The position numbers were made by a program, and so were the translations under genes. The notes beneath the pieces are model-generated. The model was not told where the DNA came from. It saw only the letters and a list, made by a program, of their open reading frames with translations, and did not search any database. A stretch of 64,000 nucleotides of DNA from an uncultured Gammaproteobacteria bacterium (lineage in GTDB: Bacteria > Pseudomonadota > Gammaproteobacteria > GCA-001735895), in NCBI GenBank assembly GCA_947259485.1, contig CAMYLU010000013.1:25065-89064 (forward strand), in the 5' to 3' direction. The stretch's first letter is position 1, and every line of letters starts with the position of its first letter. This document shows, piece by piece, positions 13,481 to 25,758 of this stretch.

Positions 13481-14134
13481 TCAGCCGTCGCGCCTGAACT
13501 TGCCGGTTTCCAGGTAATGGATAACCTGCTCTATGACCCTGCTATTGCGCATCATGAAGGTGTGCGATACCTCCATTTCGAGATGATCTTTCATGCCTTC
13601 AAGCCTGGTATTTTCAACCGAAACCCTGCCGTCATCGGGCCCTGGAATCATGCGCGACATGAACAGATCAATACTTCTGGTGCCGGCGATGATGCCCAAA
13701 TCGAAATTGGCGTGCCCCAGCTTGTTGGGAACACTGGTTTCGCCAGTTCCAAGCTCGAGCCCGGCGTCGCCGTGAACGAAGTGGAACCCCGGGAAATCAC
13801 GCAACTTGTCGACAATCTCGCTGCCCTTGTTAGGGGGGCCGAGCATGACCACGCGGCCGAGGCTGTCGATGCTATGGTGTTTAAGGTATTGCCGGACCAG
13901 GATCCCACCCATCGAATGGGTTACGAAGTTTACCCGGTGACCTTGCGGGCATGCCTCTAAAGCCGGCCCGATAGCCTCGTCGGCCAGTGCCGCGATATTT
14001 TTACGATTTGATCGGTAACTGATGTTCTGTACAAAATAACCCCGCTTTAACAGCGCCCGCTCAAGCTTTTTCATCGATCGGTCCGAACGCAACAGACCGT
14101 GAAGCAGGATGATGCTATCGGCCTGGGACGACAT
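13481..14134 (-). CDS. Alpha/beta-hydrolase fold protein (putative esterase/lipase)
   Basis: 217 aa. Nucleophile elbow HSMGG (GxSxG), N-terminal ..IILLHGL.. oxyanion region, and a late His in ..HTFMM... Confidence 0.7.
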   Translation of the reverse strand: MSSQADSIILLHGLLRSDRSMKKLERALLKRGYFVQNISYRSNRKNIAALADEAIGPALEACPQGHRVNFVTHSMGGILVRQYLKHHSIDSLGRVVMLGPPNKGSEIVDKLRDFPGFHFVHGDAGLELGTGETSVPNKLGHANFDLGIIAGTRSIDLFMSRMIPGPDDGRVSVENTRLEGMKDHLEMEVSHTFMMRNSRVIEQVIHYLETGKFRRDG

Positions 14135-14168: not shown

Positions 14169-14582
14169 TTAACCCTCGATCTCATCGGTATCGTATTGTC
14201 CCGACAGCTTGCGCCGCACATGCGACCAGGACATGCCGACCGCGAGGACGCCGGCCAGTACGAACAGCACGACCCACTGGATGACGGCCGTATCGTCGAG
14301 CGCGAAAAAACCCCACTCGATAAACAGCCAGATCAGGATTCCGAAAAAGGCAAGCGCAAGGGCCGTGCCGATGGGTCCTAGCGACCTCCAGGTCGCCCGC
14401 AGGAACATAACCCACCCGATTAACAGCACGATACCGGTGGCAGCCTTGTAGACGGTTGCAATATCTGATTGCAGCCAGCCAACCCAGGAATAACCGCTCG
14501 GGTTATAAGTCAGAAAAACGAGTGCGAGCGCAAACAGAAAACGTAGAAAAAAACTGCCTATGGAGAAATCGTTTCGGGCCAT
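14169..14582 (-). CDS. Hypothetical integral membrane protein (4 TM)
   Basis: 137 aa with four hydrophobic helices. No soluble domain. Confidence 0.5.
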   Translation of the reverse strand: MARNDFSIGSFFLRFLFALALVFLTYNPSGYSWVGWLQSDIATVYKAATGIVLLIGWVMFLRATWRSLGPIGTALALAFFGILIWLFIEWGFFALDDTAVIQWVVLFVLAGVLAVGMSWSHVRRKLSGQYDTDEIEG

Positions 14583-16164: not shown

Positions 16165-18249
16165 TTATCGGTTAGCAGCAAGCGACGCAATGCGCAGCCG
16201 AAATTCCGCCCCAGGCTCACAGTTAACAACATCGACTTCGGTTTGCATTGCACTTGCAAGTTGACGTACCAGCGCCAGGCCGATGCCGGTGCCGACGGTT
16301 TCACGCGTAAGCTCGTTCTCGGAGCGGTAAAACAGTTTGAAAATCTTCTTCATCTGGTCCGGATCGATACCGGGTCCGTAATCGCGCACCGAAAACTGAA
16401 TCTTGCCGTCCTGCATTTGCTGACAGCGAATGTCGATTCGCTTTTGGGCACCGTTAACGGAAAACTTGACCGCATTATCCACCAGGTTGATAAAAATCTG
16501 GATGAACCAGTCGATGTCAATTTTAATTCGAGCCGACTCAACTTCCTGTGTCCCCGTAATCAGCAGGTCGAACTCCGAGGGTTCGAGTTGCGATTCGAGG
16601 CGTGGTTTGAGCTCCGCCAGCGCCTCGCCAACGGTCATCTCAGTGAGCGTGCCAGCCTGCTCGTTACGAGACATACGCGCCAGCTGCAGTACATTATTGA
16701 TCAGCCGCGTGAGTCGTTCCGCCTCGTAAAAAATAAAATCATAATAGGTTTTACGTTTTGCCTTGTCGGCCCAGCCCTCGCGCAGCATTTCTCCATACAT
16801 TCGAATCGATGTCAGTGGAGTTTTAAGTTCGTGGCTGACCGCGGAAACAAAATCCTGTTGCTGCCGCGCCAGGGCGAGCTGACGTTGACCCAGTCGAAGC
16901 AGCATCAGGCAACCACCCACCAGCACGATCGCGAGCACCACCGCCGACCAGATGATGACCTGACCACCGGCGCCGACCGGCAATCTCGCCAGTGCATAAA
17001 TCAGCTCGATATCGCCAAACGGCGCAATCAAACGGCTCTGGTAGAGCAACTCGTTACTCACCTGCCCGGTACTGGGGCGATACTGTCGACTGTAATCGGC
17101 GGCAAAGTTTTCCAGGATCGAGCCGCGGTAGGCGACAATCAGTTTACTCATCGATGACAGGCTCGATTCGCGAAACGCCGGTGCAATCAAGCCTTCAATG
17201 AAATTCGCCTGGTCGATCAGAATACCCTGCACGTAGCGTTCATTGCTATGCCAGACACGCCGGAACAGGACGAAGTGCCCGCTGTCGAGCAGCGCAAATT
17301 CCATCGGCTCGACTTCACTCTCGAATGTCTGAATCCGGATCGCTCGCTGATCCAGCATCGGCTCGGCAAACACTACCTCGTTATCCACAGTTTCAGCGGC
17401 TCTTTTCTCAAGGCTTAGCGCCTGCTCGAGCATGGCCTGTGGCAGGTTTACCTTTTCCTTGCGCGAACGCCGTGATTCCGCCTGTTTTGTCTCCTCCCGT
17501 CGCTGCATCTCCGGTTTGGCTTCGGCGGCTATCTGGAAGCTGTCTTCGAGTTTAAGGTCCTTGACCTGGTCTACAGGTGCGCTGCTTTCAGCAGGGGCAT
17601 TTAATTTCCGCGTGGTCAATTCATCGAAGGCCGACTGTCCCTCGGTATCACCATCATCCATCGCGATACTCGAACTCATGCTGTCGACCTCGGTGGTCAG
17701 ACTCGGCGCATCGGAGCGCGCCGCTTGGGCTACCTCTTCCTCGGCAAGAATTTCACCGACCGCCGGTGATGCCGCGAGATCACTTTTGCCGACCAGGCGG
17801 TTTTGATCGAGAATGCCGCGAATGCGACCTTCCTGCTGCTCGCGCTGTTGTAGTTCGGATGACGAAATGCCATAGCTGGACGCATTGGCTTCGGGCACGG
17901 TTGGGGTACGCAGCTGCCCTGCAGAATCGACCTGGAAATAACCCAGCAAGCCTGGCACCTCGGCCTCCAGCGGGAACTGTGACAGTGGTGAGCGCTGCAG
18001 AAAGGCGGACCCTTCAGAGCCGCTGACATTGAGAAATTCATAGTCGCTGATGGGTCGGCTTTCTTCGCGCTCAATCAGGTTTCGAAATTCGCTGTCGATG
18101 CGTAAGCTCAACTCGCGGGCAAGCTGCTGATGCTGGTAGAAAGCCTCCCATTTCAACTGCCCGTAGGCATGGTAAACCAGGATCGAGGTCGGTAACGCCA
18201 GCGCCACGAAAAACAGTACCAGCAACAGGGTGAGGCGCCGCTGGGTCAT
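16165..18249 (-). CDS. Sensor histidine kinase with a large (~380 aa) extracytoplasmic sensing region
   Basis: 694 aa. TM1 at residues ~7-27, a long periplasmic domain with an E/Q/S-rich low-complexity stretch, and TM2 around residue 430. HisKA box ..SAVSHELKTPLTSIRMY.. is followed by HATPase N/G boxes (..NLVDNAVKFS.., ..DYGPGI.., ..GTGIGLAL..). Confidence 0.85.
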   Translation of the reverse strand: MTQRRLTLLLVLFFVALALPTSILVYHAYGQLKWEAFYQHQQLARELSLRIDSEFRNLIEREESRPISDYEFLNVSGSEGSAFLQRSPLSQFPLEAEVPGLLGYFQVDSAGQLRTPTVPEANASSYGISSSELQQREQQEGRIRGILDQNRLVGKSDLAASPAVGEILAEEEVAQAARSDAPSLTTEVDSMSSSIAMDDGDTEGQSAFDELTTRKLNAPAESSAPVDQVKDLKLEDSFQIAAEAKPEMQRREETKQAESRRSRKEKVNLPQAMLEQALSLEKRAAETVDNEVVFAEPMLDQRAIRIQTFESEVEPMEFALLDSGHFVLFRRVWHSNERYVQGILIDQANFIEGLIAPAFRESSLSSMSKLIVAYRGSILENFAADYSRQYRPSTGQVSNELLYQSRLIAPFGDIELIYALARLPVGAGGQVIIWSAVVLAIVLVGGCLMLLRLGQRQLALARQQQDFVSAVSHELKTPLTSIRMYGEMLREGWADKAKRKTYYDFIFYEAERLTRLINNVLQLARMSRNEQAGTLTEMTVGEALAELKPRLESQLEPSEFDLLITGTQEVESARIKIDIDWFIQIFINLVDNAVKFSVNGAQKRIDIRCQQMQDGKIQFSVRDYGPGIDPDQMKKIFKLFYRSENELTRETVGTGIGLALVRQLASAMQTEVDVVNCEPGAEFRLRIASLAANR

Positions 18250-18944
18250 TGCTCGGCAAGCATCAGGCGATAGCCGGCACCGCGCACCGTGACAATGGCT
18301 TCGGGGTTGGCGGGATGGATTTCAATTTTGCGGCGCAACTTGGCAATATGAATGTCGACGGTACGGGTTTCTATTTCCATGTGATTGGCATAGCCCCAGA
18401 CTCGTGCGAGCAGTTCCTCACGCGATACCGGACGCTCCGATTGCTGGCAAAGATAGTGCAGCAGGTCCATTTCACGGCGCGTAAAAACGGTGTCCCCGGC
18501 GCATAGATTCTCGGTATCGATGACGAGACCATTGTTGAGTTTGATTTCCCGAACCGAGGCTTCATCGAAACCCGAACGTCGCAATACCGCCTCCACGCGC
18601 AGTACCAGCTGTGTTACCGAAAAAGGCTTGGCGACGTAATCGTCAGCGCCCAGGGTAAGGCCCTGGACGATATCTTCGTCACTCGATTTTGCGGTCAGCA
18701 TGATAACGGGCTGCTGGCGGTCCTGTTGGCGGATACGATTACAGATTTCAAAGCCATCGACACCTGGCAACATGACATCGAGCAGAATCAGGTCAAATTG
18801 CCCGCTTAGCGCTTTGCGCAGACCGTCATCACCGTGATCGGCGGTGTCAACCTCGTAGCCATGGTAGACAAAAACATCGACCAGCCCGCTACGTATTGCG
18901 GCCTCGTCTTCAACGATCAGCAAGCGCGCTTTCTGCGCCATCAC
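18246..18944 (-). CDS. OmpR-family response regulator (REC plus winged-helix DNA-binding domain)
   Basis: 232 aa. ..LLIVEDEAAIRSGL..DLILLDVMLPGVDGFEI..MLTAK.. receiver domain and C-terminal ..RVWGY....RTVDIHIAKLRRKIE.. trans_reg_C. Its stop overlaps the kinase start by 4 nt. Confidence 0.9.
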   Translation of the reverse strand: MMAQKARLLIVEDEAAIRSGLVDVFVYHGYEVDTADHGDDGLRKALSGQFDLILLDVMLPGVDGFEICNRIRQQDRQQPVIMLTAKSSDEDIVQGLTLGADDYVAKPFSVTQLVLRVEAVLRRSGFDEASVREIKLNNGLVIDTENLCAGDTVFTRREMDLLHYLCQQSERPVSREELLARVWGYANHMEIETRTVDIHIAKLRRKIEIHPANPEAIVTVRGAGYRLMLAEQ

Positions 18945-19107
18945 ATTTTATCCTTAATAAACACACCACAATCCTAGCATTCCAGTTCGTCGGCTATGTA
19001 AATTTTTTGTAAATCCACCGCACCAGGTTTTACCAAACTCTGCCTGTTTTAATCCCCGATCCTGACCCAGAATTACTGCATCTTTCAACCACAACGGAGC
19101 AATCAAA

Positions 19108-19638
19108 ATGGCATTGGTAACCCGACTATCACGACTGTTTCAGGCCGATTTCCACGCGGTCCTCGATCGCATCGAGGAACCCGACCTGCAACTCAGGCAG
19201 GCGGTCCGTGAAATGCAATTCACGCTCGACCAGGATCAACAACGCCTGAAGCTACTGCAGCACGAGGCTGCCCAACTCGACAAGGCGGCTAAGGCTACCT
19301 CGACAAGCCTTGAAGGCTACGACGAAGAGCTGGACATCTGCCTGGCCGCGAAAAAAGACGACCTGGCGCGCGATTTAATTCGTCGCAAACTCGTCAGCGA
19401 AAAACAGCTGCAGACATTGCAGCAGCAGTTCACCAGCGTTGAATTACAGCGCCAGAATCTTGAACAGCAAATCGACGAACAAAACCAGCAATTAACCAGC
19501 ATGAAGCAAAAACTCGAGCTGCTGGTCAGCGACGATGAAGGTTTCGGCAGGGGCGAATTCAACCACGCTGACACGATCCGCGGCGAGGAAATTGAAATTG
19601 CTTTACTGCGCGAAAAACAACGGAGGGCCAAAGCATGA
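19108..19638 (+). CDS. PspA/IM30 (phage shock protein A / Vipp1) family protein
   Basis: 176 aa all-helical coiled coil. The N-terminus MALVTRLSRLFQADFHAVLDRIEEPDLQLRQAVREMQFTL parallels PspA [40 protein letters not shown]. Shorter than E. coli PspA. Confidence 0.72.
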   Translation: MALVTRLSRLFQADFHAVLDRIEEPDLQLRQAVREMQFTLDQDQQRLKLLQHEAAQLDKAAKATSTSLEGYDEELDICLAAKKDDLARDLIRRKLVSEKQLQTLQQQFTSVELQRQNLEQQIDEQNQQLTSMKQKLELLVSDDEGFGRGEFNHADTIRGEEIEIALLREKQRRAKA

Positions 19639-20213
19639 ACAAGAGCATGAAGACCCCCGGAATCATTGATGGCATCATCGTCGCAATCGCGATCAGTCTA
19701 GGCGCCGGAGCAGTGAGCCTGGTGCTGGGCGGATTTGTCGCCTACGCCACGTTGTTCAACCTGCTGCTTTGCACGGCAACACTGATCTACCTGCTTTACC
19801 TGCTAAGGCGCAGCAATGCCCGCGTCGGACGCGTAGTCGTTATTGCCGGCTGGGGTCTGGTAAGTCTCGCCGGCTGGTTCTTTAACATAGCGCCATTCGA
19901 ACAGGTACTGGTTCAGGCCGGCATTATCTGGCTGACACGCTCGCTTTATTTTCATGCCTCGCTGTTTACCGCGGCGCTCGATTTCGGGTTGGTTTCAGTC
20001 GGTCTTGCAGCAAGCGCCTGGGCCATGGTCAACACCGGCAGTCTCGCCGCGGCCCTGTGGAGTTTCTTCCTGGTCCAGGCCCTGTTTTGCTGGCTCCCGG
20101 ATCTTGCGCGCAAACAGTCCGCCGAGGCCTGTCGCCAACAGCATGATCAATCATCATTCCAAACCGCACACCGTGTCGCCCTCGACGCGGTGCGCAAACT
20201 TACCCAAACCTAA
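19635..20213 (+). CDS. Hypothetical polytopic membrane protein co-transcribed with the PspA-like gene
   Basis: 192 aa with about five hydrophobic helices. ATGA start/stop overlap with the PspA-like gene. Confidence 0.6.
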   Translation: MNKSMKTPGIIDGIIVAIAISLGAGAVSLVLGGFVAYATLFNLLLCTATLIYLLYLLRRSNARVGRVVVIAGWGLVSLAGWFFNIAPFEQVLVQAGIIWLTRSLYFHASLFTAALDFGLVSVGLAASAWAMVNTGSLAAALWSFFLVQALFCWLPDLARKQSAEACRQQHDQSSFQTAHRVALDAVRKLTQT

Positions 20214-20229
20214 CCCCGGAGATAATCCA

Positions 20230-21438
20230 ATGAAAAGTAAACCATTTAATCCCAGAATAATCGCACTGGCACTACTCGTCGCCACCGCTACCGGCATCGC
20301 ATTGTTCCCGACCCTGCAAAAGGCACAGGCGACACATAACACGCATACTACCCACGTAGTGCCGCAGCAGAGTCATCGCATCGAAGTGGTTTTCGTGCTC
20401 GACACCACCAGCAGCATGAGTGGCCTGATCCAGGCGGCCAAGGAAAAGATCTGGTCGATTGCCACAACCATGGCCTCGGCGCAGGAAAATCCCGACATCA
20501 AGATGGGACTGGTTGCGTTTCGTGACCGTGGAGACGCTTACATAACAAGAGTCTTCGACCTGTCGGAGGACCTCGATTCGATGTACGCAAGCCTGATGGA
20601 CTTCCGCGCCCAGGGGGGCGGTGACGGCCCCGAAAGCGTCAACCAGGCACTTTACGATGCGATCCACAGGATTTCGTGGAGTAACGACAGCAACGTATAC
20701 AAGGTTGCGTTCCTGGTCGGCGATGCACCCCCGCACATGGATTACCATAATGACGTCAAGTACCCGGTCACGCTCGCCGCGGCCGCATCAAAGGGGATCG
20801 TTGTCAACGCAATCCAGAGTGGGCAGCACGAGTACACCCGCCCTGCATGGCAGCAAATTGCAGCGCTGGGTCACGGTGAGTATTTCCAGGTCGAAGACTC
20901 CGGTAACACGGTGGCCGTCTCAACCCCGTTCGACGAAGAGTTGTCCAAACTTGCCGCCGAACTCGAAGACACCCGCCTTTACTATGGAGATGAGGCGACC
21001 AAAAAGGCACAACAGGCAAAGCTCGACGCCAATGCCAGGCTGCGCGAGGAATTATCAAGCGAAGCACTTGCACGACGCGATACCTTCAATGCGACCGCAA
21101 GCGGCAAGGCGAACCTGCTTGGAGAAAGTGAACTGGTTGATGCGATTGCATCAGGCCGGGTTGAACTCGACGAAATCAAGCAGGAAAACCTGCCTGCCAC
21201 AATGCAGGCGATGGCACCGGAAAAGCAGATGGAAGTGATTACTGAACAGGCACAACGCCGTGACCAGCTACAGCAGGAAATTAAAAGGCTGTCCGAATCA
21301 CGCAGCAACTTTATCAAGGAAAAGGTTGCCGCCGAGGGTGGTGCCGAAGATTCACTGGACGAAAAGATATATCGCGCGGTGAAGGACCAGGCCGCTGCCA
21401 TAGGCTTAACCTACGACAGCGATAGCGCGAGTTACTAG
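20230..21438 (+). CDS. Secreted von Willebrand factor type A (vWA) domain protein with a C-terminal coiled-coil region
   Basis: Start chosen at MKSKPFNPRIIALALLVATATGIALF (signal peptide), with a GGAGA Shine-Dalgarno 8 nt upstream. MIDAS motif VVFVLDTTSSMSG (DxSxS) plus downstream T and D residues. The listed ORF 19954..21438 is this frame extended upstream over the membrane-protein gene and was trimmed. Confidence 0.72.
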   Translation: MKSKPFNPRIIALALLVATATGIALFPTLQKAQATHNTHTTHVVPQQSHRIEVVFVLDTTSSMSGLIQAAKEKIWSIATTMASAQENPDIKMGLVAFRDRGDAYITRVFDLSEDLDSMYASLMDFRAQGGGDGPESVNQALYDAIHRISWSNDSNVYKVAFLVGDAPPHMDYHNDVKYPVTLAAAASKGIVVNAIQSGQHEYTRPAWQQIAALGHGEYFQVEDSGNTVAVSTPFDEELSKLAAELEDTRLYYGDEATKKAQQAKLDANARLREELSSEALARRDTFNATASGKANLLGESELVDAIASGRVELDEIKQENLPATMQAMAPEKQMEVITEQAQRRDQLQQEIKRLSESRSNFIKEKVAAEGGAEDSLDEKIYRAVKDQAAAIGLTYDSDSASY

Positions 21439-21480
21439 GCCAGGGGCAATCTCAGGCCGAGAGTTCCCCGACTCTCCTCA

Positions 21481-21864
21481 CTACTTGGCCTGCGCCACCA
21501 GGCGCGGGCCTTTTTTTATGCCGCCACCACGCAACAGCAGGTAAAGTTCATGAACAAGTCGCTCATTGGTCTGAATTTCGAGCCATTTCTCCTTCGACAC
21601 CTTGCGTTTGACCAGTTCCCGTACGACTTTGAGCGTAAAGGAGTCGCTCTCCAGGTTGGGATCTGGATGCCCGACGCTGATGTTCTGTATGGTACGACTC
21701 AGAATTAAAGTGGTCGATTCGTCGGCATCCTGGTAGAGCCTGGTGCGAATGCGGTTATCGGCGAGTAATTCTTCGGTGGCCTTGCGCTGGCTTCGCATCT
21801 GGATGCTCAGCACGATCAACAGGCCCAAAGCTAATAATGAAATCAATGTTGCAACTAGGTTCAT
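21481..21864 (-). CDS. Hypothetical membrane-anchored protein (single N-terminal TM)
   Basis: 127 aa. N-terminal MNLVATLISLLALGLLIVLSI helix then a charged soluble region. Its 3' end overlaps the plus-strand terminator, so the call is tentative. Confidence 0.4.
   Translation of the reverse strand: MNLVATLISLLALGLLIVLSIQMRSQRKATEELLADNRIRTRLYQDADESTTLILSRTIQNISVGHPDPNLESDSFTLKVVRELVKRKVSKEKWLEIQTNERLVHELYLLLRGGGIKKGPRLVAQAK
21487..21517 (+). terminator. Rho-independent terminator after the vWA gene
   Basis: GGCCTGCGCC-acca-GGCGCGGGCC followed by T7. It is embedded in the 3' end of the minus-strand ORF 21481..21864. Confidence 0.5.
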
Positions 21865-22046
21865 GGTCTTCCCGCTATAGTGTTATATGTCGTGAAAAAT
21901 GAGTTTAGCAGCGCGGATTCGAGGCATTAACGATAAGTAAAAAATGTCGCATTTTTGCCGGGGAATCTATTACCAATGGATCAATTTTCAAACCCGGTAA
22001 ATTGATTTATATTCCCTTGATTGTAAACCTGTCGAGGATACAGGGC

Positions 22047-23075
22047 ATGAATAAAGCCGGAAGTCTCCTGAAAATCCCGGTTTTGATGATAGTACTCGCA
22101 TTGTTGCTGCCAGCCGCCAATGCCAGCGAAACCCGTGGCAAGATTACCGGCGGCGTATTGCACGAGCCCCCTGCCTGGTTTAAAAAGAGTTTCCTCGAGA
22201 TCGCAGACGATGTTGACGACGCCAATGAAGCTGGCAAGCACGTGTTGCTTTTTTTCGAGCTCAATGGCTGTCCCTACTGCGACCGCATGCTGGAAGAGTC
22301 CTTCGAAGCCGAGCCCCTGAGCAGTTATATTCAGGCCAATTTCGATACCATCGCGATCAATATCCAGGGCGATCGCGAAATCGCTTTTAACGAAGAAATC
22401 TCGGTTACCGAAAAAGAGCTGGGCGAGATCCTGAAGGTTTACTCGACACCAGCCCTGCTGTTCCTCGACGCTGATAATAAAACCATCGTACGCGTTAACG
22501 GCTACCGTGCACCCGAACGCTTTAAGCTGGTACTCGAATTCGTCGCTACCCGGTCGTACCAGACGACCAACCTGGCGGATTACCTGCAGGCCAAACACGA
22601 CAGGAATGTTTACCAGCTGCGCGCAAATTCACTGTTCAGCGAAGTGACCGATCTTTCAAGCGTCGAGGGTCCGTTAATGGTTATTTTCGAAGATGGAAGT
22701 TGCTACGATTGCAACGAGTTTCATGATGGCATTCTGGCGCACAAGCAGGTGCGCGAAGAAATCGCGCCGTTTACTATCGTGCGCCTCGATGCCGATTCAA
22801 ATGCAGCGATCAAGGATGTCTATGGCAACGCAACAACGCCCGCCGAACTGGCCAGCAAACATGAAATGATATACCGCCCGGGGGTACTGGTTTTCGATGA
22901 TGGAAACCTGGTACGGCGCCACGACAGCCTGACTTTCCCCCATCATTTCAAGGAAAGCATGCGCTTCGTCGCCGGCGGGTTTTACCAGCAAACCGACTAC
23001 CGCAACTATTCCCTGCAACGCACCGAGGAATTGCTCGCCAACGGCGTTGTCATCGACCTCGGTCGCCCTCAGTAA
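22047..23075 (+). CDS. Secreted thioredoxin-fold protein with two CxxC motifs (tandem thioredoxin-like domains)
   Basis: Start at MNKAGSLLKIPVLMIVLALLLPAANA (signal peptide), with GAGGA 7 nt upstream. ..HVLLFFELNGCPYCDRM.. (CPYC) and ..MVIFEDGSCYDCNEF.. (CYDC). The antisense ORF 21981..22598 is rejected. Confidence 0.7.
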   Translation: MNKAGSLLKIPVLMIVLALLLPAANASETRGKITGGVLHEPPAWFKKSFLEIADDVDDANEAGKHVLLFFELNGCPYCDRMLEESFEAEPLSSYIQANFDTIAINIQGDREIAFNEEISVTEKELGEILKVYSTPALLFLDADNKTIVRVNGYRAPERFKLVLEFVATRSYQTTNLADYLQAKHDRNVYQLRANSLFSEVTDLSSVEGPLMVIFEDGSCYDCNEFHDGILAHKQVREEIAPFTIVRLDADSNAAIKDVYGNATTPAELASKHEMIYRPGVLVFDDGNLVRRHDSLTFPHHFKESMRFVAGGFYQQTDYRNYSLQRTEELLANGVVIDLGRPQ

Positions 23076-23178
23076 CAGACTGTGCTGGTTAAAACCTTCC
23101 TCCGCAAGCTTCGTTATTCGAGGAACCCGAACGAAGGCTGAATCTGGAAGAAATCAATCCGCTTACTATACTCGGTGC

Positions 23179-25758
23179 ATGCTTTTAAACGGTATCGTCA
23201 TGGGCCGAAATTTCCCGAGTATCTTTTTGCTATTAACTATCTTTGCGTTGGCTTCGTTAGACAGCCAGGCGGAACTGTTCAAGTGGGTCGATGAAAATGG
23301 CAAAATTCATTACTCGGATAAAAAACCGGATGAGAAAATAGACTCGAAGGTAATCCCCAAAAAAAATAAATCAGCCGGTGATTATCAGCAGGCAACCTCG
23401 GCTGCATTAAAACCCATTATTCGACCCTACGAAAAAACGGCAAGAAAACTTCATCTGCTCGACACTCGTTATTTATGGAAGAAAGAATCCGAGGTTAGCC
23501 AGACCAGTAAAATCGGCGTTTACCACACTGGTAAAGGGTGCACCACGCGTGGCGCAATAAACACACCCGATGTGTTCGTCCACCATCGATCCCTGTTCCC
23601 GGACGAATCGAGGCTAGCTCACCAGATTAACAAGATCATTAACGGGCTGGACTACGAATCCGAAAAAACCGAAAAGTATCGCCTGCTTGGTCGTCTGAAA
23701 AAAACCGGCGGCTTGAGTCTGCACGCCGAAATCATTGCGATGAATTTGAACACCTGTGCGCCTAACATCCGCAAGAGCGAGCGCCTCAAGCCGATCGATA
23801 AAATATCAGCAAGCAGGTTTACCAAGAATCGTGTCAGGCTGCAGGTTAACTGGCAGCTAAAAACAAATCGGGACCAGGATGTTATCTACGAGGCTGTGAC
23901 CCCGGGCAATTACAACGGGTGGAACCAGTCCAGCTCTTCGAGTACCGCGATCAAAAATGCGCTCGAATCCGCCGTACTGACACTTTTTTCGGACAGGGAT
24001 TTCATCGACAAAATCCTGGTGGAAGAGGATGGTAGCAGCATCGGAGAGATTCAAAAAACAGGCTTAAAACCGATTAGTTCAGACGCAAAAACCAGGACCA
24101 GAAAACTGTTTGTTGCGGTCAATAGCAAGGACTGGATTAAGAACAAACTACCCGAAGCAGAAATAGGCAGTATCCTGTTTGGCGAAAAATGTGCAGCGAA
24201 AAAACCGTTACCGCTGAATATCGCTCTCAACAACCAAAAATGGCTGACTTCGAATGCACAGCAAACCAGCAAGGCAATTGTAAAAAAAATCAGGCCGCTC
24301 GGTTACTCGGTTAATCCGGCTTCGGCTGATACGCTTTCAAAACTGGAAAATTCGGGCGGCTACAGCCTCAATGCCAGGCTGGTAAAGGTTACCTACGATG
24401 CCTGCGCGCCTTCGTTATCCTCATCGGCCAAGTACAAGCCAATCGATAAATCCTCATTGCGCAAATTGACTCGCAACAGGCTGCAGGTCTGGATCGAATG
24501 GACCCTGAAAACAGATCGTAATCAAAAACTGCTGTATCACACCAATACCATGGGTTTTGCCGGCAGCTTACTGGCTGATTCGAGGGGTGCTGAAGCCATG
24601 TCAGATGCCATCGGCATGGCCGCAGAACAGCTTTTTGCTGACGGTGATTTTATCGAACTGATAACTTTAAAAGCCAGAAATTTACCTGCTGAAAATGCGT
24701 TTACCGCAAAACAGGATCCATCGCTACGTGGCATAGTCATGTCGGGCGAGGAGGAAGCACAGAATCTCTTCGTTGTTTCGGAGAGTAATCCGTGGGCTCG
24801 TATCCCGGCGAAAAAAATGATCGGGTATTACGCCTACGGTACGGACTGCGCTCCGTTTAAGGAACGCAATTGGCCGCAGGCGCTCAACGATCATCCACGA
24901 AGCTTCCCGGATTCAGGTGAAATAATCGGCACCGAATTGAAAGTGGTAAAAAGCCTGGGATATCCCGCCCAGGTCGCGGACGCGTACAGCGTCGTCAATA
25001 TGAAGCGTAAGCTCGGCGGCTATAGTCTGCATGCGGACATCGTCGATATACGCTTCGATTCCTGCGCCCCGAATTTAGATGAAAACATTATTTTTTCGGA
25101 TCGAAAAATATCTGCCAGTCAGTTCAAACGACATCGAGTGATTATCACCGTTAACTGGAAGCTGGTCGGTGCCACTGACCAGGAAGTTCTATTTCAGCTA
25201 ACCACCGAAGGCGTTGCCGATAGCTGGCTGTTGAACGCCAAGGCCAAAAAGATTCTGACCATGGCAATCAAAAACGCGACCACTCGATTGTTCGCCAACG
25301 GGGAATTTGTCGCCAATCTGATGAACCATAAAGAGCAGGAAAAAGGTTTTTTCAGCAACCTTTTTTCGTTTATGGATGAAGATGGTGAAACCGGTTCCGG
25401 GATGACCCAGAGCCTGGGTAACCCGTATGTCATACAGGCGCATGCGGCCCAGGCACTTTCAGAAATCAATGCGCTTAAGGTAGGCGTCCTCCAGCACTTC
25501 ATGATGGAGGGGGACTGGCCAGATAGTCTTTCTGCAATTGGTTATTCAGAATCGTTGTTTACCAATAGCGACACCATTGCCTACGTGAATTTGCAACCCG
25601 ATGGCAGCATGGTGGTCGAACTCAGGGAGCTGTTTGGTAACGATAAAATAATAACCTTGAGTCCCGACGCAGACGATGGAAATCTGAGCATGAATCGATG
25701 GCAGTGCAGCAGCAACCTGGCTCAGAAATACTTGCCGAAAAACTGTGAAGGTCTGTAA
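23179..25758 (+). CDS. Large secreted multidomain protein: DUF4124-type N-terminus, three ~115-aa internal repeats each with a conserved CAP cysteine, and a C-terminal type IV pilin-like globular domain
   Basis: Signal peptide (M)GRNFPSIFLLLTIFALASLDSQA then ELFKWVDENGKIHYSDKKP (DUF4124 hallmark). Repeats at about nt 23659-24021, 24319-24681 and 24979-25326 share ..GGYSL.A.IV.....CAP....PIDK.S...F.RNR...V.W.LKT.R.Q..L..(25-50 variable aa)..LF.(D/N)G(D/E)F(I/V)... The tail ..YVIQAHAAQALSEINALKVGV...DKIITLSPDADDGNLSMNRWQCSSNLAQKYLPKNCEGL resembles the pilin headgroup (compare PAK PilA ..GKIITLTRTAADGLWKCTSDQDEQFIPKGCSR). The gene is much lower in GC than its neighbours. Start uncertain between 23179 and 23200. 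Confidence 0.7.
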   Translation: MLLNGIVMGRNFPSIFLLLTIFALASLDSQAELFKWVDENGKIHYSDKKPDEKIDSKVIPKKNKSAGDYQQATSAALKPIIRPYEKTARKLHLLDTRYLWKKESEVSQTSKIGVYHTGKGCTTRGAINTPDVFVHHRSLFPDESRLAHQINKIINGLDYESEKTEKYRLLGRLKKTGGLSLHAEIIAMNLNTCAPNIRKSERLKPIDKISASRFTKNRVRLQVNWQLKTNRDQDVIYEAVTPGNYNGWNQSSSSSTAIKNALESAVLTLFSDRDFIDKILVEEDGSSIGEIQKTGLKPISSDAKTRTRKLFVAVNSKDWIKNKLPEAEIGSILFGEKCAAKKPLPLNIALNNQKWLTSNAQQTSKAIVKKIRPLGYSVNPASADTLSKLENSGGYSLNARLVKVTYDACAPSLSSSAKYKPIDKSSLRKLTRNRLQVWIEWTLKTDRNQKLLYHTNTMGFAGSLLADSRGAEAMSDAIGMAAEQLFADGDFIELITLKARNLPAENAFTAKQDPSLRGIVMSGEEEAQNLFVVSESNPWARIPAKKMIGYYAYGTDCAPFKERNWPQALNDHPRSFPDSGEIIGTELKVVKSLGYPAQVADAYSVVNMKRKLGGYSLHADIVDIRFDSCAPNLDENIIFSDRKISASQFKRHRVIITVNWKLVGATDQEVLFQLTTEGVADSWLLNAKAKKILTMAIKNATTRLFANGEFVANLMNHKEQEKGFFSNLFSFMDEDGETGSGMTQSLGNPYVIQAHAAQALSEINALKVGVLQHFMMEGDWPDSLSAIGYSESLFTNSDTIAYVNLQPDGSMVVELRELFGNDKIITLSPDADDGNLSMNRWQCSSNLAQKYLPKNCEGL

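Follow-up and report, generated by a model that had tools for sequence, protein, structure and literature searches.

A PspA-like, membrane and vWA protein operon divergent from an OmpR-type two-component pair: a candidate Psp/Lia-type module

What kind of system is encoded where a two-component pair diverges from a small operon for a PspA-like protein, a multi-pass membrane protein and a von Willebrand factor A (vWA) protein? This question is raised by a locus of an uncultured Gammaproteobacteria bacterium (GenBank assembly GCA_947259485.1, contig CAMYLU010000013.1), located within a stretch of 64,000 nucleotides that was analysed as a whole (positions 25,065 to 89,064 of the contig, forward strand; hereafter the window). 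PspA, Vipp1 and LiaH constitute the bacterial branch of the ESCRT-III superfamily, and the locus bears on how these proteins may be targeted and regulated beyond the models of E. coli, Bacillus and Mycobacterium. An earlier reading of the same letters (the original prediction) had proposed an uncharacterised module that combines Lia-like logic with a non-canonical Psp composition. Following it up, we give even chances to the reading that the five genes form one envelope-stress module of the Psp/Lia type, with a new set of partners and Lia-like two-component control, that would span the inner membrane.

On the minus strand, the gene for a sensor histidine kinase (HK; 16165-18249, 694 aa, with HisKA and HATPase_c matches in Pfam) follows that for an OmpR/PhoB-family response regulator (RR; 18246-18944, with REC and winged-helix Trans_reg_C domains), and the two share an ATGA, read from the sequence as GAGCAATGACC. 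Across a divergent intergenic region of 163 bp (18945-19107), the plus strand carries the PspA-like gene (19108-19638, 176 aa), which has a GGAG 8 nt ahead of its ATG, then the gene for the transmembrane (TM) protein (19635-20213, 192 aa) and finally the vWA gene (20230-21438, 402 aa), whose start is an internal ATG at 20230 inside a longer open reading frame (ORF; 19954-21438). The PspA-like and TM genes also share an ATGA (read as GCATGAAC), by which the latter is predicted to be translationally coupled to the former, and a 16-nt gap containing GGAGA separates the TM gene from the vWA gene. The operon ends at an intrinsic terminator (21487-21517, plus strand) made of a 10-bp stem with nine GC pairs (21487-21510) and a T7 tail. 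The five ORFs, both overlaps, the GGAGA junction, the divergent gap and the terminator thus all lie where the original prediction had placed them, with the refinement that the true start of the RR is probably the ATG at 18941, one codon downstream of 18944.

Conservation of the five-gene arrangement

The five genes and the promoter motif described below recur in about 60 species from three phyla, so that neither the HK-RR/PspA-TM-vWA arrangement nor the adjacency of its genes is peculiar to the genome studied here. One genome per species of the GTDB set was queried with an alignment of the TM protein, and the 63 species-level loci returned are a lower bound, given that the survey relied on two peptide patterns. 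Most of these loci come from metagenome-assembled genomes, but binning does not alter which genes lie side by side within one contig. Presence was counted by comparing the window proteins with the six-frame ORFs of each locus, the denominators being the loci long enough to judge, and taxon names are those of the sequence records. Carriers are found among marine Gammaproteobacteria, Ca. Poriferihabitaceae, Ectothiorhodospiraceae, Thiodiazotropha, Chromatiaceae, Sedimenticolaceae, Woeseiaceae, Methylococcaceae, Acidobacteriota and Bdellovibrionota, and at least one of them, Thiocystis minor DSM 178 (Chromatiaceae, locus L059), is in culture. Across these loci the identity of the TM protein falls to as little as 30%. 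The PspA-like gene lies immediately upstream of the TM gene in 58 of 59 loci and the vWA gene immediately downstream in 52 of 56, while an OmpR-type regulator is divergent in 52 of 56 and a kinase with a homologous sensor region in 44 of 46. The stop-start overlap between the PspA-like and TM genes is likewise retained in nearly all loci, including those of Acidobacteriota.

Could this adjacency be mere inherited synteny, without any functional link? The nearest relatives do have the whole neighbourhood in common, which proves little by itself. More distant loci, in contrast, lose the flanking genes, with the small ORF downstream of the operon present in 20 of 52 loci and the thioredoxin-like gene beyond it in 15 of 46, and keep the five genes together with the candidate operator. 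Furthermore, other phyla reshuffle the gene order and keep the linkage: in three loci from Acidobacteriota/Bdellovibrionota (L062, L063 and L065) the vWA gene stands upstream of the PspA-like gene and is still divergent from a homologous HK-RR pair. The vWA protein of these loci is of another subtype (VWA_2/VWA/CoxE-like, about 500 aa) and has an N-terminal TM helix too. Linkage that outlasts both the loss of the flanks and the reshuffling of gene order points to a functional module, and chance synteny was excluded on these grounds; the probability left to it is virtually nil.

A few loci depart from the divergent arrangement. Two unrelated genes sit between the regulator and the operon in L040, and in two Chromatiaceae-like genomes the divergent slot is occupied by a DegP/HtrA protease (Trypsin_2 plus two PDZ domains) instead of the RR-HK pair (L052:2-1138 and L055:5509-7077, both on the minus strand). 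DegP homologues are also encoded about 6.5 kb downstream in L032 and L060. Separately, a second and N-terminally truncated copy of the TM gene (L058:7974-8462) stands alone beside a large ORF that looks, by eye, like a transposase gene. L058 and L062 lie on one Acidobacteriota contig (CBDCMS010000003.1), and this copy is probably the remnant of a duplicated or transposed module.

The three operon products

The first product had been proposed to be a PspA/IM30 protein, and a profile search upholds this: the 176-aa protein scores 56.8 bits for PspA_IM30 (PF04012), for which the cut-off is 33.9, and an Acidobacteriota orthologue scores 62.9 bits. The match spans only positions 4-139 of the 220 in the profile. 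Residues 2-138 align without gaps to residues 2-138 of E. coli PspA (4WHE, PspA(1-144)) and also to Vipp1 chains, which indicates that the protein carries the amphipathic helix alpha0 and the alpha1-alpha3 hairpin, collinear with PspA and Vipp1. Its N-terminus is strongly conserved across phyla. What is missing from the PspA-like protein is alpha4-alpha5 (profile positions ~140-220); the roughly 35 residues that follow the match consist, in orthologues from three phyla, of a variable linker and then a conserved C-terminal motif, roughly [DE][DE][IV]E[IVL]A[FL]LRE[KQ]xxR. In the NCBIfam collection, the equivalog models for PspA and LiaH give scores far under their cut-offs. Judged by its sequence, the protein is thus a truncated member of the PspA/IM30 family.

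The second product, in which the original prediction had counted five TM helices, has six in its AlphaFold2 (AF2) model (predicted local distance difference test score 73.5), followed by a long cytoplasmic C-terminal helix (helices at residues 10-31, 37-59, 63-82, 87-105, 110-134, 137-150 and 153-190). The predicted topology is N-in/C-in in the inner membrane. Two intramembrane residues, R102 and D116, are invariant, and the C-terminal cytoplasmic helix is conserved as FQxAHRxAxDAVxKL. Homologues are numerous, with 830 clusters at 50% identity for E<=1e-3 and 618 for E<=1e-10. Among 38 members of the family (the window protein and 37 diverse relatives), none reaches a Pfam cut-off, and NCBIfam gives nothing above cut-off; the only match at E<=0.01 among the 38, that of the window protein to Xan_ur_permease, was taken as noise (18.9 bits, cut-off 27). 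The TM protein therefore represents a previously unclassified family that has no Pfam model.

The third product had been described as a secreted vWA protein with a metal-ion-dependent adhesion site (MIDAS). The domain assignment stands, with Pfam matches above cut-off to VWA_4 (52.1 bits), VWA (36.0 bits) and VWA_2 (30.0 bits), and with MIDAS-type motifs (LDTTxSM, GGGDGPE and GDAPPH) whose conservation across 52 orthologues is 95% or more, the first of them being DxTxS as against the textbook DxSxS. A search of PDB sequences returned no relative of the protein. Free secretion, on the other hand, is disfavoured. At the N-terminus, a short run of positive charges precedes a single hydrophobic helix, conserved as MKxKLIALALFxxTAxxVAxYP, behind which lies a Pro-rich linker of 20-35 residues that is free to vary in length and sequence. 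A conserved helix followed by a variable linker makes a retained signal-anchor likelier than a cleaved signal peptide, so the protein is more likely anchored in the inner membrane than freely secreted; the charged N-terminus and the single conserved hydrophobic helix predict an N-in/C-out topology. A charged helical tail follows the vWA domain, and the C-terminus, SLDxKIYxAVRxQAxxxGLxY....Y, is at least 95% conserved. As a separate observation, the proteins of the 52 orthologues end in a conserved ...GLxY....PxY-COOH (21400-21438 in the window). The DegP neighbour mentioned above suggests the purely speculative idea that this aromatic end could be a recognition tag for a PDZ domain or a protease.

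The strict conservation of the MIDAS motifs also lends itself to another interpretation, according to which the vWA protein does the work in a niche-specific periplasmic function and not in a general envelope-stress response. Examples would be attachment to surfaces or the handling of metals, metalloids or sulfur in the periplasm, with the other two operon products serving as a scaffold. In line with this idea, most carriers are, by their record names, marine or sediment Gammaproteobacteria, many of them from sulfur-oxidising families (Chromatiaceae, Ectothiorhodospiraceae, Sedimenticolaceae, Thiodiazotropha and Woeseiaceae). Yet the module is also found in Acidobacteriota and Bdellovibrionota, the loci examined show no linkage to genes for sulfur or metal handling, and the taxon bias may stem from the pattern-based search. 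Such a niche role is accordingly regarded as quite unlikely.

A vWA protein next to a membrane protein could, alternatively, belong to an anti-phage or other conflict system, in which the vWA protein would act as a sensor and together with the membrane protein trigger membrane disruption. Domains of the vWA type and membrane effectors are indeed known from several conflict systems, and PspA was originally discovered as a phage-induced protein. In a PADLOC search, however, the PspA-like protein drew only weak hits of the kind that coiled coils produce as noise, the kinase matched a model (PDC-M43B) merely through its generic ATPase domain, and the TM and vWA proteins matched nothing. Moreover, the module contains no NTPase, nuclease or toxin gene, the TM protein was not found in plasmid and phage collections, and the genes occupy a stable chromosomal setting in a syntenic core region, where they are tied to a classical two-component system. 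Taken together, these observations render a defence function highly improbable.

The two-component pair and the divergent intergenic region

The kinase begins with a first TM helix (TM1, residues ~7-27), which is followed by an extracytoplasmic region of about 400 residues, a second helix (TM2, ~430-452), HisKA and HATPase_c. Two conserved extracytoplasmic segments (~28-150 and ~305-430) flank a variable acidic or low-complexity insert (~150-300), and TM2 leads directly into HisKA, which leaves no room for a HAMP domain. The regulator matches Response_reg with 107.7 bits and Trans_reg_C with 86.7 bits in Pfam, and its sequence places it in the OmpR/PhoB family. Its best NCBIfam matches (RpaB, MtrA and PhoB) are all under the equivalog cut-offs, the top-scoring model, RpaB, giving 193 bits against a cut-off of 330.

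Dimers of OmpR/PhoB-family regulators classically bind direct repeats one helical turn apart. A repeat of this form, TGTAAA-N5-TGTAAA, lies in the divergent region (18997-19013, plus strand) with an 11-bp phase, and it is the sole match to this sequence within the 64 kb of the window. The more general form nGTAAA-N5-nGTAAA was found in 58 of 59 orthologous intergenic regions, the single miss being an artefact of start-codon trimming, and in most loci the pair stands 109-119 nt ahead of the PspA-like ATG. In the rearranged phyla it precedes the vWA gene, which is the first gene of the operon there. The repeat thus fits control of the operon by an OmpR/PhoB-type regulator, the adjacent RR being the presumed ligand of this candidate site.

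The repeat is part of a composite element that is common to intergenic regions which are otherwise unalignable between families. In an alignment of 20 loci (A5), both GTAAA of the GTAAA-N6-GTAAA arrangement are invariant. After a distance of 14 nt, fixed in most loci, the second repeat is followed by TTTTACC, an inverted GTAAA; in the window this half-site block, TTTTACCAAA, and the CTGyCT after it (CTGCCTG here) occupy 19028-19046 on the plus strand, and TTT.C and G.CT are invariant in A5. About 21 nt past CTGyCT lies a -10-like hexamer (19068-19073, plus strand), CAGAAT in the window and TAGACT in more distant loci. Conservation in A5 reaches 90% or more for A2 and T6 of this hexamer, as in a sigma70 -10 element. 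CTGyCT was considered as the -35 element and ruled out by its spacing of ~21-22 nt to the hexamer. No conserved -35 was found ahead of the -10-like hexamer, no consensus sigma70 promoter in the region upstream of the operon and no plus-strand sigma54 site (TGGCAC-N5-TTGC-like) in 18945-19107, a combination in keeping with a promoter that depends on an activator. The intergenic region of Thiocystis minor DSM 178 (~6914-7296 of L059) is widened to 383 nt; downstream of the operator and ahead of the PspA-like gene it includes tandem copies of a hexanucleotide, (CGACAA)n, which could be a variable spacer or leader element.

On the other side of the divergent region, a block near the regulator start (18970-18979), AATCCTAGCA on the plus strand and TGCTAGGAT on the minus strand, is also conserved; inspection of the orthologous regions by eye showed TGCTAGGCT, TGATAGGCT, TGTTAGACT and similar forms. 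The minus-strand form of the block, TGnTAGGnT, looks like an extended -10-like element (TGnTAnnnT), placed where it would drive the RR-HK genes.

A precedent for the repeat can be sought among regulators of the same family. In cyanobacteria, RpaB binds HLR1, which consists of two direct repeats of the form (G/T)TTACA(T/A)(T/A) (PMC6525291), and the half-site of the module resembles it in being TTTACA, the minus strand reading TTTACAAA-N3-TTTACATA. The period, however, is 11 bp as against 10 in HLR1, the regulator stays at the sub-cut-off RpaB score given above (193 against 330 bits), and neither the partner kinase nor the regulon is related.

The operator is retained in L040 and L055 even though the HK-RR pair is not adjacent there, and its position facing the DegP gene in L055 hints that the regulon includes a periplasmic protease. 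This observation bears on the main alternative, namely that the operon supplies the two-component system with accessory components for sensing or feedback rather than with effectors, much as LiaF serves LiaS or CpxP serves CpxA, and that the true outputs lie elsewhere. The vWA protein would then bind the periplasmic region of the kinase or its ligand, and the condition of the membrane would be signalled by the TM/PspA pair. Such a role would agree with the co-occurrence of the kinase sensor region and the operon across phyla, with the predicted periplasmic location of both the vWA domain and the kinase sensor, and with the placement of the operon under the presumed regulator box, which would create an autoregulatory loop; in addition, the same operator opposite a degP-like gene in L052 and L055 would imply a regulon that exceeds this operon. 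Conversely, the only match to the regulator box within 64 kb is that of the operon itself, and PspA-family proteins are known as effectors as well as regulators. A purely accessory role is considered unlikely, although sequence alone does not separate it from an effector role and the two may hold together.

Known systems, a possible mechanism and the flanking genes

How far does the module resemble systems already described? A close parallel is LiaFSR-LiaIH, the envelope-stress system of Bacillus subtilis, in which a two-component pair controls a small operon. One product of that operon belongs to the PspA family, and another, a small multi-pass membrane protein, brings it to the membrane (PMC9239133, PMC11237479). 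Unlike the NarL/LuxR-type LiaR, the regulator here is of the OmpR/PhoB type, and unlike the intramembrane-sensing LiaS, the kinase has a periplasmic region of about 400 aa. The module further departs from Lia in its shortened PspA homologue, its additional vWA protein and its Gram-negative host. Additionally, Pfam searches detected no LiaF, LiaI-LiaF-TM or Toastrack domain (DUF2157/DUF2154/DUF4097) in the module, the TM protein and its 37 relatives included. What is observed in common with Lia is the adjacency of the two-component pair, here joined by a conserved candidate regulator site; control of the operon by the pair would be a further likeness. By membership the module is not a Lia system, yet it appears to share the Lia logic.

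The resemblance to the E. coli PspF-PspABC(DE) system lies in the effector, which is of the same family and collinear with PspA 1-144, and in the presence of a small inner-membrane partner. It differs from the E. coli system in its two-component control, its vWA partner and the missing alpha4-alpha5. No PspF, PspB or PspC was found in the module with Pfam, the divergent neighbour being an OmpR-type RR. The module is hence not a canonical proteobacterial Psp system, and, together with the lack of a sigma54 promoter and the 11-bp-phased repeat, this accords with the proposal of Lia-like logic outside the canonical Psp set. A mycobacterial counterpart, ClgR-PspA-PspM-Rv2742c, combines PspA with a lineage-specific membrane protein under non-sigma54 control tied to the MprAB two-component system (PMC11237479), but it relies on the 2-TM PspM and on ClgR and has no vWA protein.

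From the side of the vWA protein, a different set of systems comes into view. Membrane-anchored bacterial vWA proteins such as BatA/BatB of the Bacteroides aerotolerance operon and TerY share with the predicted form of the present one a membrane-attached vWA/MIDAS domain within a stress-related operon. Unlike them, the module has no MoxR ATPase, DUF58 or TPR partner, and the homology seen is that of the generic vWA fold. To our knowledge, BatA/BatB- and TerY-type systems contain no PspA-family protein. A full-text literature search yielded no paper linking PspA/IM30 to a vWA protein (a Lipocone paper that contains both terms proved unrelated), and the terms vWA, Willebrand and OmpR are absent from two surveys of Psp systems (PMC11237479 with its supplement, and PMC9239133) and from a 2025 review of ESCRT-III (PMC7619361). 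Within the literature searched, which includes the comparative genomics of Psp, the module is thus undescribed, and to that extent it deserves the epithet uncharacterised.

If the five genes do form an envelope-stress module, the following sequence of events is plausible. The kinase would sense an extracytoplasmic cue through its periplasmic region and phosphorylate the OmpR/PhoB-type regulator, which would bind the 11-bp-phased GTAAA repeats and the inverted TTTAC half-site and activate the -35-less operon promoter, so that the operon products would be made in fixed proportion. The shortened PspA, itself cytoplasmic, would be recruited to the inner membrane by the 6-TM protein, likeliest via its conserved C-terminal helix. 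The vWA protein would be held in the same membrane by its N-terminal helix, with its metal-dependent MIDAS domain facing the periplasm. The resulting complex would span the inner membrane and couple a periplasmic binding event to membrane stabilisation or remodelling of the PspA type, and it could feed back on the kinase. In this scheme we infer from sequence the regulator binding, the topology, the protein contacts and the physiological role, be it in envelope stress or in membrane remodelling.

Several observations weigh against such a module. In PspA and Vipp1, alpha4-alpha5 contribute to the assembly of rings and rods, and a PspA-like protein that lacks them may be unable to polymerise as PspA does. 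The AF2 model of the TM protein is nearly devoid of periplasmic loops, so any contact with the vWA protein would have to pass through the TM helices. The subtype and position of the vWA protein vary between phyla, and this partner may be more exchangeable than a fixed subunit would be; in three to four loci, moreover, the HK-RR pair is not adjacent. Finally, the distribution may be biased by the peptide patterns with which it was obtained.

A bolder version of the envelope-stress module would make it a new class of ESCRT-III-like machine whose site of assembly is dictated from outside the cytoplasm. A periplasmic MIDAS adhesin, anchored next to a dedicated 6-TM adaptor with a buried Arg/Asp pair, would direct a minimal PspA (alpha0-alpha3 plus an alpha5-like peptide) to its place on the inner membrane, and the kinase would read the same event. 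We consider this version unlikely. If it were true, a dedicated extracytoplasmic subunit would be known from a PspA system for the first time, and the module would offer a compact model for targeting of the ESCRT-III type in Gram-negative bacteria. The new elements of the module are a naturally minimal PspA, an unclassified TM family of at least 600 clusters at 50% identity, a vWA protein predicted to face the periplasm and presumed OmpR-type control in Gram-negative hosts. As the candidate operator can be read from comparative data, sensing, membrane remodelling without alpha4-alpha5 and signalling from the periplasm to PspA are directly testable; although most of the many carriers are uncultured Gammaproteobacteria of marine and sediment origin, the cultured Thiocystis minor DSM 178 makes experiments feasible.

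The genes that surround the module in the window are of a different standing. No further copy of a PspA, vWA, HK, RR or DegP gene was found among them or elsewhere in the 64 kb. Convergent with the vWA gene is an ORF (21481-21864, minus strand) for a 127-aa orphan protein with an N-terminal TM helix and no family match above cut-off in Pfam or NCBIfam. It shares the terminator hairpin (21487-21510), and the overlap of the terminator with its 3' end implies that the terminator is probably bidirectional. As this orphan is retained only in the close clade (the 20 of 52 loci counted above), it falls outside the module. Beyond it lies a gene (22002-23075, plus strand) whose product has two Thioredoxin_2 domains and starts with a signal-like hydrophobic segment. 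This gene adjoins the module only in the close clade (15 of 46 loci); in L057, a thioredoxin-like homologue stands on the opposite side, past the kinase. Next comes a 903-aa ORF (23047-25758, plus strand) with three internal repeats of about 230 aa (...GGYSL[HN]A...C.P... segments), whose orthologues in L001 and L002 bear DUF4124 and Pilin matches in Pfam; its product may be a large surface or pilin-like protein of an unusual kind. On the kinase side, a DUF6524 membrane protein (14169-14582, minus strand, 158 bits) is followed by a small alpha/beta-hydrolase-like protein with sub-threshold matches only (13481-14134, minus strand). This pair is kept in L001 and L002, and what separates it from the kinase is a pyridoxal phosphate (PLP) decarboxylase gene in the window, an Oxidored_FMN gene in L001 and both in L002.

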